From NCBI GenBank assembly GCA_964016885.1, contig OZ024747.1, positions 80,538,001 to 80,602,000 on the forward strand: a stretch of DNA of 64,000 bases. Direction: 5' to 3'. The translations under genes and the position numbers were made by a program. Below the pieces are notes generated by a model that was given only the letters and a program-made list of their open reading frames with translations, was not told the origin of the DNA and searched no databases. Positions 1 through 54,219 of this stretch are shown here, in pieces. Position 1 is the stretch's first letter; each line of letters begins with the position of its first letter. This DNA is from Eledone cirrhosa (lineage: Eukaryota).

Positions 1-582
1 TAAGGGCAGTGAACCAGTGGCCTCTGAGGGACGAACTGCTAGAAAGGGCAGTCCAAAGCCACTCAGAGAAGTGTGCTCAACCAAACAGAGTTAGGAAAGA
101 CTGTTATTAGGAGCGAAATATCACGATAAATTAACGGAGGCATAGGCCCTCGCTAGCGAGGGCCTATGCCTCCGTTAATTTATCGTGATATATATATATA
201 TATATATATATATATATATATATATATATATATATATATATATATATAGTATAAAAAAACAAAAAATCAGTGATACATCTGGACTCAACTTATTGCGTGT
301 TACAATTGTTTCGCCGGCAGGTAGCTCGAGACACGAACTACCCGTGGTGTCTGAAGGACCTGCAGCCGTAGAATCAGCCAGATCCATACAGGGACCATGT
401 CTCAAGCCTCCTGCTGGCGAAACAATTGTAAAACGCAATAAATTGAGGCCAGATGCATCACTGATTTTCGTTTTTTATACTATCCACACTCTACTCTGTT
501 GAATATTGAGTGCTAATTTTGGTATACCGCCTATGGAAGCACCATAGCTACCATTATACACAAGTATATATATATATATATA

Positions 583-763
583 ACGAAGGAAATGTGGTAA
601 GGAACCAGGTGGACCATAACGCACCAAAGTACTCAATACTTAGGGTAGTAGAGTGGGTAATAGGAACCAGTAAGACCCCGACGGCTGAGCTCAAGCCATT
701 TCGACGGCTAATTAGCCGTCGAAACGGCTTGAGCTCAGCCGTCGGGGTCTTACTGGTTCCTAT
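583..763. repeat. (TA)n-flanked fold-back unit family A (other copies 10373-10545, 61799-61986)
   Basis: Shared tail GTGGTAAGGAACCAGGTGGACCATAACGCACC..TAGGGTAGTAGAGTGGGTAATAGG plus a ~100-bp hairpin. Confidence 0.9.
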
Positions 764-1239
764 ATATATATATATGTATATTATACACAAGTATATATAT
801 ACACAAGTATATATATATATATATATATATATATATATATATATATATATATATATATATATATATATGTATTTATACATTTATATACATATATATATAT
901 AATATCTCTCTCTCTCTATATATATATATATATGCATGTATGTCTGTCTGTATGTATGTATACATACATATATACATGTATCTGTGAATGTATGTATATA
1001 TGTGTGTATGTATACAGAGAGAGAGAGAGAATGAGAGACCGGTTATCTCAGCTATATTTATAAATATACGCATATTACATGGCTCTTTTGTTATACGTGT
1101 ATGTCGAAAAAAATGAAAAAAATATTCTATGTGAGGTTTAAAGTTAAAAGTGATCTGAGCTTTCTTCTCTAGACACAGACCTACAAATTTTGATGGCGAA
1201 CGCCATTCATTTCTCAAACTTTCATTATTATTGCCTGAT

Positions 1240-1668
1240 AAAATAAACTACCAGTAATACACTGGGATAATTGCTGGCCTTGTGCCAAAAGTAGAAACAA
1301 TTATTATTACAAGCTTATATAATTTGGAAGAAAGGCGGTGAATTGGCAATATCAGTAGAGGGTTGGACATGTTTTCCAGCATAGCTACGTACCTTTACTA
1401 TCTGAGTTAAAATCCCGCCGAAGTTAACTTTGCCTTTCATCCATACGGGGTCGATAAAATAAATTACCAGTAATGTACTGGGTATTTACTGCTCTTGTGC
1501 CAAAAGTAGAAACAATTATTTGCAGCATATAATTACGGCCTTTTACGGTCCGAGTTCTAATCCCGCCGAGGTTAACTTTGCCTTTCATCCTTACGGATTC
1601 GATAAAATAAAGTACCAGTAATGTACTGAGATAATTGCTGGCCTTGTGCCAAACGTAGTAACAATTAT
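1240..1668 (+). mobile_element. Tandem cluster of ~190-bp tRNA-derived SINE family 1 (tail-only, full copy 1334-1520, head-truncated copy)
   Basis: A-box-like GGCGGTGAATTGGC, B-box-like GAGTTCAAATCCCG (family consensus), central TTTGCCTTTCATCC..GGGGTCGATAAAA..AGTACCAG (Meta-domain-like), tail GGCCTTGTGCCAAAAGTAGAAAC(AATT). Confidence 0.88.
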
Positions 1669-2380
1669 TTAGAAGTGCAAATATATAACAAAAATCAAAC
1701 GGTCGTTGGTGTTGGTTTTGGAATAACGTCAGTCGAAACCACAATATATTCTGCTTGTCTATTGTCGCGTAATTGACATGTTTTTTTTTGAAACCTGAGA
1801 TAAACATTCGCTCACACAAAGATTATACTTACAAACCACACAAACAGATTACCAAAAATATACCTATAATATTAACGATAATGGTAATAATTGCTCATAT
1901 TTATTAACAAACAATAACGATAACAATTCTAATGATGACTTACAATCATAATTGAACTGAGAATTAGAAATTTCCAATAACATGAACACATATAATGAAC
2001 CGACTTGTAAATGAAAATGAACATTTTACTTTACCTGAAACTGTTTCTAAATTTAGAAAGGATTTTGCAACAAATCGAATGGTGTGTAAAATCCTACTTA
2101 ACAACTCCTGATAGGCTCATTTTAATGACAATCAATATTTAAATATTTCACCTCGCTCTCAAACAGGCCCAATTGAGTTAAACTACAAATAGGGTTCAAC
2201 TAACAGGTCTTATAACCTTCTCATAAAATTTACCCGAAGATTGTAATTCATTCCTTTAAACTTTGAATTCTAACTGAATTTATAGTTGAAGAAGCTTGTT
2301 TAAGTTTGGCTGAAAAAGACATACATTCTTTATAAAGTTTTTGGATGGTAAAATCAAAAGAAATCATAATGGTTGGTTAC

Positions 2381-2566
2381 AATAATTGTTTCTACTTTTA
2401 GCACAAGGCCAGCAATTACCCAGTACATTACTGGTACTTTATTTCATCGACCCCGTAAGAATGGAAGGCAAAGTTAACCTCGGCAGGATTTGAACACAGA
2501 TCGTAAAGGGACGTAACTATGCTGGAAAGCATGTCCGACCCTCTACCGATACTGCCAATCCACCGC
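2381..2566 (-). mobile_element. SINE family 1 with 19-bp target-site duplication
   Basis: ATGGTTGGTTACAATAATT at 2369-2387 and 2569-2587. Confidence 0.92.
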
Positions 2567-3243
2567 GGATGGTTGGTTACAATAATTAAAGCTTAAATTA
2601 TCAGGACATTCATTTGACATGAATAGTAACCTCTTCTAGATAAACCGTGTCTCTTTAGTTTCAATAGAATTATATATATTAAAATACTAACTTTGAGGCA
2701 ATTTTCTGTAGATTCTATGTTTCCTTTGATACTCCAGACAACTGTATGTGAGATTTATAGTAAACTGAATAGATTAGCACATGGTTTGTAATTGCTCAAT
2801 CGACTCTTAAAAGATGAAAGGGCAGAGTTCGCCACGGAATTTATGAAGCAGAGAATTCAAGACTCTCTTTCTTTTGGGCCTCTCCAATACCATTAGACTT
2901 CTCTAACAAAAATATGATTATATACATAAGAATGAAAATATAGAAATCTTATAAAAACCATTTTCTTCGATTTATAGAAATACTTTGTTTTTTTTCAAAA
3001 GGTAGAAACGCCAAAGGCTTCAATAATGTTGACGCTATTTTATTTTATCACCACAACATTAAGTGTGTATATATGTTTAAGATACTCGGATTGTAGTTAT
3101 AGTTGCACTCGGCGCGTGACAGTCGGTTCTCCGAATATTGTATGTTGAAGCTATGTCTGCACACGTGTCTCAAATGTCCGCCTGAAATATCGCTCAACTC
3201 TCATTAGCAACACATTGCAGTCACAACTATTCATGATGTATCA

Positions 3244-52095: not shown

Positions 52096-52290
52096 GGCGG
52101 TGGATTGGCAGTATCGGTATAGGGTCTGACGCCATGCTTTGCTTTGTAGCAAAGAGTTACGATCCTTGCCATTCTGAGCTCAAATCCCGCCGAGGTTAAC
52201 TTTGCCTTTCATCCTTACGGGTCGATAAAATAAAGTACCAGTAATGCACTGGAGTAATCGCTGACCTTGTGCCCAGAGTAGAAACAATTA
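52096..52290 (+). mobile_element. SINE family 1
   Basis: Full head-to-tail match to the family consensus. Confidence 0.9.
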
Positions 52291-52739
52291 TATATGTGAA
52301 TTATATAAGTCAGCAAGTATATTTAGCTATATCACTAAAATGGAACGATTCGTACGAGAAAACACCTATACCGAGACATATGTATGTATATTATTGAATA
52401 TACCTACATATTGTATGTGCTTTCATATAACATTTCATCTGGGTGAACCTACAGTAACTTCACGTTACACTCCTTGGGTATATATATATATATATATATG
52501 TATATATATATGTATATATATATATATATGTATATATATGTATATATATATATATCTAATATATATATGTGTATATATATATATATATATATGTATATAT
52601 ATATGTATATATATATATGAATATATATATATATAAATATATATATATATATATATATATATATATATATATATATATATATATATATATATATATATAT
52701 ATATATATATATATATATATATATATATATGTATATATA

Positions 52740-53518
52740 TAATATAAGATCAAAAGATGGTTAAAGGAGTTCCATGTATTTTATTATGCGCATTTCAAAA
52801 ACAAACATCATCATGCAATAATATTTGTGTTTTCATCAGATAAAACAGGAGAACATGATATGAAGGCTAAAAAACACTTGTGGATAGTGCAGTTTTAAAT
52901 CAACATATGAAAAGTGGTTTTAGATTGATGTGTGATATTGGGAAAAATATTTTATTTAGAGAGGGGGTGGGGGGTGGAGAGGATGAAAAAGGGGAGGAGA
53001 TGAGAGTGAAGGTGGAGAGGGAGAGATGGGTGATAGAGAGAAAGAGATAGTTTTTATAACTGAGAGAAGATATATTGTTTTACATAGAGAGGTTGAAAAC
53101 CGTTGGAAGATAATGTATAAATTAAAAGAATTTGAAAATTAACGAAGGGAAAAATATGTACGAGGAAAGAGAGGGAGTTTATGTATGAAGATAGAGAGAA
53201 AAAATAATAATTGCGGATGAATATTCTAACGTCAAAAGGTGTATGTTGATAAGTATTGTGGCAATTTCAAAATTAACGAAGAGAAAAAATTATTAAGGTT
53301 TGTGTGTAGAAGGATTTGAGAAAAATAATGTGAAGTTAAAGTTTGTATATTGAAGGAATTGATAATATGTGCGAAGAAAGAGTTAATATGTATTAAAAAA
53401 TTATTAAGGTTTGTGTATTAGATGATTTGAGAAAAATAATGTGAAGTAAAGGTTTGTATATTGAAGGAGTTGATAATATGTGCGAAGAAAGAGTTAATAT
53501 GTATTAAGAATGAGTTCG
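52740..53518 (-). mobile_element. 3' UTR/pseudo-LTR fragment related to the 43.8-47.1 kb PLE
   Basis: 52740-53130 aligns with 43776-44190; internal ~110-bp tandem duplication at ~53290-53510; bounded by (TA)n. Confidence 0.8.
52777..52847 (-). ncRNA. Type I hammerhead ribozyme
   Basis: TGTTTTAT-CTGATGA-[AAACACAAATATTAT..ATGATGTTTGTTTTT]-GAAA-TGCGCA-TA-ATAAAATA. Confidence 0.85.
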
Positions 53519-53679
53519 TATGTATATATATATGTATATATATATATATATACATATATATATATATATATATCGTATATATATATATATATATATATAT
53601 ATATATATATATATATATATATATATATATATATATATATATCGTATGTATATATATATATGTATATATATATATATTC

Positions 53680-53980
53680 TTTTTGGTAAATATCATCTTG
53701 GTTAAGAGAGTGGGACTGGCTTTGTGCAGTGCCTTTGCTCACTATAAAAGCTTCACGGCACAGGCATTGCTTTATATCTGGAGATCTCTCTGCACTTGTC
53801 GTCACATGGTACCATGGACCCAGCACTATGTGTCAATAATTGTCACAAGTGTAGTGTTTGTACCAGAGTTTTCAATACGCTGGCTGGACTAAAAAGTCAC
53901 ACTTGTTCAGGGCATCGGTAGGATTTCTCCTACATGGATATAAAGTAGTGGCCGTACTCGAAAACGAGTTGGCAGCCACC
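53680..53980 (+). mobile_element. LINE 3' end (RTE/BovB-like) with terminal zinc-finger-like peptide and 3' stem-loop
   Basis: HKCSVCTRVFNTLAGLKSHTCSGHR* followed by CTCG-AAAA-CGAG hairpin just before (TA)n. Confidence 0.65.
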
Positions 53981-54219
53981 ATATATATATATGTATGTAT
54001 ATATATATATATATATATATATGTAGATAAATCTACCAAGAGTTTACGGTAGTGTCCAATCCGTATGAAGAACTCAATGTAATCCGGATATCATGGAAAG
54101 AAGAGATGCAATGAAAAATCACTTTCGGTGAAAGATAAACGGAATCCAGAGTCAAGATAAAATATTAAAAAAATAATGAATAAAACAATGAAACAGTTCC
54201 TTATATTAAACAAAAAAAG

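Follow-up and report, generated by a model that had tools for sequence, protein, structure and literature searches.

The closest described relatives of the elements considered here are the Hydra-clade Penelope-like elements (PLEs) of Craig et al. 2021 (PMC8557442), which combine a CxCX5C linker and CxxC and CxH motifs around the end of the endonuclease (EN) with a hammerhead ribozyme near the 3' end, (TA)n targets, an optional tail, and an inverted truncated arm. A second point of comparison is the Poseidon element PAc (PMC11167929), whose genomic ends coincide with two internal reverse transcriptase (RT) start sites that bound the tail. In PAc, nicking and extension occur on both target strands. 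The RNA is required as far as +172, with starts at about +111-118; some 55-60 nt 3' of the start are needed. These starts lie in an AC-rich stem-loop without target homology, and the binding motif has only been hypothesised.

We analyzed a 64,000-nt stretch of Eledone cirrhosa DNA (contig OZ024747.1, positions 80,538,001 to 80,602,000; hereafter the window), in which the 3' ends of Hydra-clade PLEs carry a small bulged hairpin. In contrast to the PAc start region, this is a defined, covarying, doubled hairpin located 3' of a target-complementary patch. It is very probable that the hairpin exists and marks insertion ends.

A bulged hairpin behind the terminal box

The first-pass annotation had placed a shared TGAGTRC box before the terminal (TA)n of ten otherwise unrelated units in this window, which is AT-rich and holds many (TA)n runs. 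Each of the 10 strings occurs at the position given there, to within 1 base, and nine end 37-72 nt ahead of a (TA)4+ run; the box at 15929 lies 156 nt from such a run because another element fragment comes after it. The carriers do include several unrelated families, but the 10 sites represent seven families, not ten (sister sites 628/10491, 5256/15929, and 8779/31310 are 84%, 86%, and 87% alike). Positional enrichment is found: of 142 clean oriented flanks, 7 have TGAGTRC at 35-100 nt ahead of (TA)n, whereas 1000 shuffles average 0.76 and reach at most 5, and the antisense strand has 0 in the same band; this test is partly circular, as the pattern was derived from the same window sites. Independent support comes from three further window families (14265+, 15227+, and 114-) and from loci outside the window.

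Read from the sequence, the box is the 3' strand of a predicted bulged RNA hairpin, H1, sited in the optional tail of Hydra-clade PLEs. The layout is RCUC, a variable upper stem, a UN bulge, GAGY, and RCU. The earlier proposal of a stem-loop was right in kind, and its ACTC/GAGT pairing is correct. The signal is not a free-standing box, its spacing varies (the 5' half lies 11 to 73 nt before the 3' half), and the ACUC/GAGU letters seen in the window give way elsewhere to a usual form, GCUC/GAGC. A descriptor built from this layout (RCTC, an upper stem of at least 2 pairs, TT, GAGY) matched 12 window sites versus 1.15 in local shuffles (maximum 4 in 200), and the other 15 bulge dinucleotides gave 0-2 sites each. 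Tails contain ten of the 12 sites; of the remaining two, 13820- is a candidate second hairpin and 21363- was rejected as a carrier, being a match without link to any end. The descriptor added families j, k, and l, two of them with a compensated GCTC/GAGC stem. Other candidate carriers were also rejected: 13446+, where the box lies directly at TA, 63362+, which is a short interspersed element (SINE), and 33591+, 38791-, 28669-, and 11024-. A transcription-factor site was rejected since GAGC forms accompany compensating GCTC.

Conservation was assessed in 92 loci outside the window that were collected via a Hydra alignment: 12 from genome contigs and 80 from metagenomes, the latter being the best of 375 confirmed stretches. 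They contain 81 hammerheads in 51 families. A GAGYRC anchor occurs 40-130 nt downstream in 30 families (control windows in open reading frames [ORFs], 39/825), 14 families stop at the short end or the contig end, and seven show other arrangements. We left out the 3' copy of locus L057 before counting, as its anchor lies in flank beyond the short end, which reduced the 30 families to 29. A Watson-Crick 5' partner is present in 28 of the 29 hammerhead-anchored families versus 2.7 by chance, and in 11 of 15 for second anchors, which define a second hairpin, H2; flank matches and one mismatched stem are among the other four. All 39 outside hairpins have the GCUC/GAGC form, in which the constancy of GAG is by design, as GAG was the search anchor. 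Two of the seven other families hold variant hairpins, both doubled: H2 of L082 (approximately 2000-2110) has GCAC/GTGC, a compensated core change, and L042 (approximately 110-220) has GAGC followed by TCT in both hairpins.

The upper stem is variable in sequence and conserved in pairing. Because a MAFFT alignment of 29 hairpins put the 5' halves out of register, pairs were counted from the anchors by script. Upper-stem pairs 1-4 of H1 covary above permutation (p of 0.001 or less), with pair 1 being U-A in 19 and C-G in 6. When the bulge is 2 nt, 37/39 hairpins form the first upper pair, compared with 4, 1, and 5 at bulges of 0, 1, and 3 nt. Within H1 pairs 1-4 there are 15 G-U versus 3 A-C combinations, which favors the sense strand. 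The lower stem has a folding probability (P) >0.5 in 28/28 outside H1 and 8/11 outside H2.

Published consensi of the Hydra clade (PMC8557442) also contain the hairpins: those from coral and sea cucumber hold it, and that from sea louse does so with a mismatch (judged by eye). Hydra-1_Ajap starts with H1, H2, and ATG, and Hydra-2_Amil and Hydra-2_Ajap have H1 in the tail. In the portions of that paper available to us there is no mention of hairpins, of a UA patch, or of their tie to the ends. A subgroup of outside loci (L026, L038, L050, L065, and L077) has an extra conserved TGAGTAG between hammerhead and H1, also found at the end of Hydra-1_Amil; this segment may pair with an upstream CTCA or similar.

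Paired hairpins and the two insertion ends

Copies that read through the usual end contain H2 42-63 nt past the GAG of H1, followed by an ATG. Both hairpins belong to the pseudo-long terminal repeat. A read-through or circular RNA carries, in order, the hammerhead, 36-65 nt, a UA patch, H1, a spacer, a second UA patch, H2, approximately 20-55 nt, and the AUG. Insertions end just 5' of one or the other hairpin, in most cases at a UAUA patch, giving a short end before H1 and a long end before H2, with H1 retained. Terminated copies were compared with read-through copies of their own family, in pairs chosen by hand. Of 11 such comparisons for H2, 10 place the long end at 0 to -11 nt (8 within -4); of 15 for H1, 11 place the short end at 0 to -13 nt, one places it inside H1, and three gave no anchor. 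The offset of L072 is -7. Among window families, a, b, d, g, and l have short ends 2-5 nt ahead of RCTC, and in all five TAT occurs in both element and target; the ends are less sharp in c, j, and k. Specifically, the short arm of family a stops 4 nt before ACTC, with TAT common to element and target, that of family b stops 5 nt before ACTC in 3/3 copies, the short ends of family g (61765 and 47551) lie 4 nt before ACTC, and that of family l lies 3 nt before GCTC.

The sequence just 5' of the hairpins resembles the target. TA runs of at least 4 occur within 12 nt before the hairpin in 21/39 cases versus 4/39 and 3/39 in control windows, and TAT or ATA peaks 4-7 nt before hairpins. We also compared four public runs with window positions 8480-8900, where ACTC lies at 8766, for loose ends joined to (TA)n. 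Run X1 has such ends behind 8763 (59 contigs), 8754 (96), and 8861 (115), and run X5 has them behind 8763 and 8861; in raw reads, loose ends lie at 8754 and at 8746 plus approximately 11 letters.

Nine window units (a, three of b, c', d', g, j, and l) fold back head to head, one arm being short and the other long. Their unpaired part corresponds to the optional tail in Fig. 2 of Craig 2021 (PMC8557442), with the box inside it; the tail here is approximately 60-140 nt versus 30-40 nt in that paper. The distance from box to (TA)n is merely the spacing of H1 and H2. The earlier claim of a set distance holds not for box to (TA)n but for insertion end to next hairpin (0 to approximately 13 nt), which is the tight variable. 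The broader claim stands, namely that PLE 3' ends of unrelated families share a conserved cis-acting stem-loop, which is tied to insertion ends.

Candidate mechanism and competing explanations

We favor, with a probability of about 0.6, a reading of these sequences in which each hairpin anchors the RT and a nicked (TA)n strand primes on the UA patch. The RT-EN would bind the hairpin, the EN would nick (TA)n, and the freed 3' end would pair with the UA patch, where copying would begin and proceed away from the hairpin. A start at H1 would give a short end, and a start at H2 a long end with a tail containing H1, the box that was seen. If both target strands were primed, one per hairpin, the products would be head-to-head fold-backs with one short and one long arm. 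Having two hairpins would explain why there are two start sites, a tail, and fold-backs that pair a short arm with a long one.

Several observations weigh against this anchoring mechanism. Evidence for H2 in the window's own organism consists of one doubtful candidate (13803..13820-), for which folding is unfavorable (P 0.02), and no H2 read-through is among the loose ends listed for 8480-8900 in the public runs. Some ends are exceptional, lying at -27 from H2 (L051), inside the hammerhead (L063 and L053), or inside H1 (L085). Judged by eye, fold-backs 15475-15735, 17443-17889, and 29587-29850 are without the full pattern. Window hairpins are thermodynamically marginal (lower-stem P >0.5 in 7/13 sites), L036 has almost no upper stem, and folding separates the strands weakly (0.93 for sense, 0.76 for antisense RNA, and 0.72 for antisense DNA). 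The families are related, so the covariation p values of 0.001 or less overstate independence, and upper pairs 2-4 of H2 are not above permutation (n = 11). In addition, the PAc support comes from another clade.

The departures in the three fold-backs are, respectively, an ACTC tail without closing strand, no tail with a SINE in both arms, and extensions on both sides.

The hairpin could instead act in DNA, single-stranded or extruded, as a signal at which the GIY-YIG endonuclease cuts the adjacent TA patch while resolving an intermediate. The patch resembles the target, the tail was ascribed to EN-mediated resolution in Craig 2021 (PMC8557442), and a Drosophila virilis tail is needed for EN recognition as cited by Frangieh 2024 (PMC11167929). 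Hairpin halves 8-73 nt apart would be hard to reconcile with a duplex site, the 15 to 3 excess of G-U favors the sense strand, and PAc ends match RT start sites on RNA (PMC11167929); we consider resolution unlikely. Slightly less likely is an RNA 3'-processing signal, by which a host or element nuclease would cut at the 5' foot of each hairpin and ordinary target-primed reverse transcription would proceed from the new 3' end. Most tight cases, with offsets of 0 to -6, fit foot cutting plus pairing on the nearest UA. Against this, the motif does not resemble a tRNA (a 4-bp stem and a free loop), it has no Rfam match, and purified PAc protein starts internally on intact RNA (PMC11167929).

A role in expression, as a promoter-proximal or translation signal in the 5' leader, with the closeness of the ends due to something else, for instance the AT-rich patch alone, appears improbable. 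It is consistent with the promoters held in pseudo-long terminal repeats and with the position of the H2 GAG 25-62 nt before the first ATG in 10/11 families; yet H1 is kept in at least seven window families without an adjoining ORF, and the ends track both hairpins to a few bases, even though these untranslated regions (UTRs) commonly have AT-rich patches in other places. Hammerhead stem III needs an A-U pair and a UH cleavage site. The common GCUC/GAGC form lacks both in 39/39 outside hairpins, although several Hydra hammerheads do have ACUC/GAGU in stem III. It is most improbable of all that the hairpin offers the minimal hammerhead a second choice of partner in stem III, or that it works on an antisense template as a stop or as a self-priming structure (the latter as in the antisense self-priming model of PMC3846280). 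Head-to-head palindromes were previously read as antisense self-priming; both outer ends of the fold-backs here are sense 3' ends at (TA)n.

How the anchoring mechanism might work at the protein level is more tentative. Possibly, though with considerable doubt, the bulge folds as an arginine sandwich bound by a conserved RxR that precedes W[FY]NPP in the protein sequences. Arginine occupies positions -6 and -4 in 95/107 and 95/107 proteins (lysine in 7 and 6), counted in the 107 of 152 Hydra proteins in which the motif was found. The bulge begins with U in 38/39 outside hairpins, its second base is free (U 25, C 8, A 4, G 2), and the base just before the bulge is paired (36 Watson-Crick and 1 G-U of 39) and a purine in 38/39. 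In HIV TAR, C39 and C37 are the partner bases. Like TAR and 7SK SL1 ASM3 (PMC6189040), the hairpin would have a paired purine, a U-led bulge, and then G-C, A-U, and G-C pairs, the matching TAR positions being A22, U23, G26, A27-U38, and G28. The hairpin differs in being circularly permuted, its loop closing the other end, and common descent is not implied. Two GTG variants, L082 H2 (GCAC/GTGC, compensated) and Hydra-1_Crog (GTGC), would break the U.A-U triple; together with L036 they argue against a strict triple. In a predicted Hydra model the RxR arginines lie in coil, and they could equally bind DNA.

In telomerase, an internal template patch pairs with a simple-repeat primer, and its position is set by adjacent RNA structure. 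The proposed mechanism would be similar in that an internal patch pairs with a simple-repeat primer and an adjacent structure positions it. It would be different in producing a long cDNA rather than repeat addition, in having the structure 3' of the start and doubled, and in using an endonuclease to make the primer. TERT is the top fold match of a predicted Hydra model; neither the 49 PDB fold matches listed nor the sequence search included a PLE structure. A full telomerase-like ribonucleoprotein is conceivable but rather doubtful. In it, two TAR-like arginine-sandwich hairpins would be bound by an RT-EN dimer, one to each subunit via RxR, and each hairpin would present a UAUA patch to one nicked (TA)n strand. 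If true, a module of approximately 25 nt would set the start site on any RNA. The hairpin also invites comparison with the 3' UTR stem-loops of L2, CR1, and R2, small 3'-end RNA structures common to autonomous and non-autonomous elements. Stem-loops of this kind in long interspersed elements and SINEs are copied into every insertion, whereas the hairpin marking an end here is omitted from that end.

In PAc RNA (Frangieh Fig. S1, PMC11167929), GGCCA...AGCC occurs twice, approximately 45-50 nt apart, with an AC-rich stretch after each. This pair may be a doubled anchor in Poseidon, and doubling of the anchor may explain the PLE tail in general.

Host elements, range, and significance

The box-bearing units are 3' ends of PLEs with whole or half hammerheads, and element ends in the window abut (TA)n. 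Three window frames carry the Hydra-clade linker and C-terminal motifs as defined in Craig 2021 (PMC8557442), with CNC-X5-C linkers at 57.7 kb, 45.3 kb, and 6.8 kb (Table 1). C345, C348, E351, N366, C375, and H377 are invariant in A1, two window proteins included, and no Cys pair was seen by eye within the GIY-YIG core. DKT is present in frame 46037-47005, and the consensus of relatives has ADKT and RW; the window frames are 5'-truncated and do not reach RWK. There are 397 relatives at an E value of 1e-30 or better. Five Hydra-type pieces had no Pfam match, a word-indexed protein search gave three matches only, and two scans of viral contigs found no relative. Families d and g lie downstream of Hydra frames, and the other families are without an ORF; a, b, c, e, f, j, k, and l are putatively of the Hydra clade, by shared hairpin and end structure only.

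Table 1. Positions of box strings, hairpins, coding frames, and ribozyme cores in the window
Feature	Position	Strand	Remarks
Box strings	504-514+, 628-638-, 5256-5266-, 8779-8788+, 10491-10500+		Direct string match
Box strings	15929-15939+, 17311-17320+, 29186-29195-, 31310-31319+, 54069-54078-		Direct string match
H1, family a	488..514	+	ACTC 488-491, TT bulge 506-507, GAGT 508-511, GCT; tail of fold-back 249-564
H1, family b	628..654	-	Tail of fold-back 583-760
H1, family b, second copy	10474..10500	+	TC bulge; fold-back 10376-10549
H1, family b, third copy	61848..61871	-	Decayed, GCGT for GAGT; absent from first-pass annotation
H1, family c	5256..5277	-	Long arm head to head with b-like short arm (5323-5390+)
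H1, family c, second copy (c')	15918..15939	+	After palindrome 15795-15899; hammerhead core 15852
H1, family d	8766..8788	+	Hammerhead 8659+; decayed Hydra-type ORF upstream; short ends 8754-8763, long end about 8851
H1, family d, second copy (d')	31297..31319	+	5' half decayed; fold-back 31156-31381
H1, family e	17261..17320	+	49-nt insert, 5-bp upper stem; hammerhead 17148
H1, family f	29186..29208	-	One-base bulge; hammerhead 29280-
H1, family g	54069..54152	-	73-nt insert; tail of 7.7-kb fold-back 54022-61765 around Hydra ORF
H1, family j	14265..14303	+	GCTC/GAGC form; absent from first-pass annotation
H1, family j, second copy	13903..13941	-	
Candidate H2, uncertain	13803..13820	-	ACTC-CC...GG-TT-GAGT after TATAT patch
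H1, family k	15227..15302	+	68-nt insert; folding weak, P 0.07; absent from first-pass annotation
H1, family l	75..114	-	GCTC/GAGC; tail of palindrome 121-188, crosses window start; absent from first-pass annotation
Open Hydra-clade PLE frame	55957..58080	+	RT, CxCX5C linker, EN; 5'-truncated; 707 codons; parent of family g
Decayed Hydra-clade frame	6048..7127	+	Upstream of family d
Decayed Hydra-clade frame	44942..47005	-	3' end stops at short end (43776), no tail
Type I hammerhead cores	8659+, 61561+/54364-, 17148+, 29280-, 15852+, 13631-		Predicted

The 7.7-kb fold-back 54022-61765 is recent, as its arms are 97.7% alike; it has a 3.7-kb 3' UTR rich in microsatellites and a stem II insert of approximately 120 nt in its hammerhead. 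In a chimeric fold-back (5214-5390), the long arm is of family c (-) and the short arm is b-like (+), 80% identical to 10409-10464, a structure consistent with two independent priming events. Two copies of one hammerhead family in opposed orientation (8861-9046 and 9942-10172) both stop at the short end, and a Neptune/Nematis-type fragment (9057-9833) lies between them. The window also contains an abundant SINE of approximately 190 nt, with copies 80-91% alike at 1219-1690, 2377-2567, 3343-3529, 26075-26276, 28403-28611, 30068-30279, 48437-48630, 52095-52308, and 63298-63482. Among the outside loci, L081-L091 are Hydra-clade PLEs with (TA)n flanks in bacterial genome bins from marine animals, most likely as host contamination.

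The first-pass annotation had extended the signal to all (TA)n-targeting PLEs. This does not hold, as the Neptune/Nematis-type window ends (24926+, 21574-, 47197-, and 47876-) are without the hairpin and have no descriptor match. Such ends, in three families, have another terminal motif, ACCCTCCC.A.(G/C)(C/T)ATAA, approximately 10 nt before the junction, and a Neptune/Nematis-type fold-back (21553-24950) has two long arms. In the available supplement of Craig 2021 (PMC8557442), six 9-mers have terminal matches in Hydra consensi only and none in the Naiad and Chlamys files, in a search that would miss matches split by line ends. On these sequences the signal looks Hydra-specific, in a small sample.

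We compared these results with PMC8557442, PMC11167929, PMC4209133, PMC7229834, PMC3846280, PMC13282606, PMC6189040, and bioRxiv 10.64898/2026.07.22.740005, as far as each was available. The tail, inverted arms, hammerheads, and two start sites are already known. The hairpin is not described in the literature searched, which left most subscription papers and Repbase out of reach. In Rfam (gathering score or an E value of 0.5 or better), 20 of the 92 outside loci gave four sub-threshold microRNA matches, none on a hairpin, and the 150 of 228 window matches listed were all below the gathering score. The hairpin is a real, conserved RNA element, apparently undescribed before, in a known retroelement clade.

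The choice of template and start site by PLEs, the optional tail, and the inverted arms have so far been unexplained, and the one PLE reconstituted so far has an undefined RNA binding motif. A conserved, doubled, covarying hairpin that predicts both ends specifies exact mutations to test. It also provides a diagnostic for annotating Hydra-type repeats without ORFs, and, if the proposed mechanism is right, it would tie PLE priming to telomerase-style template pairing.

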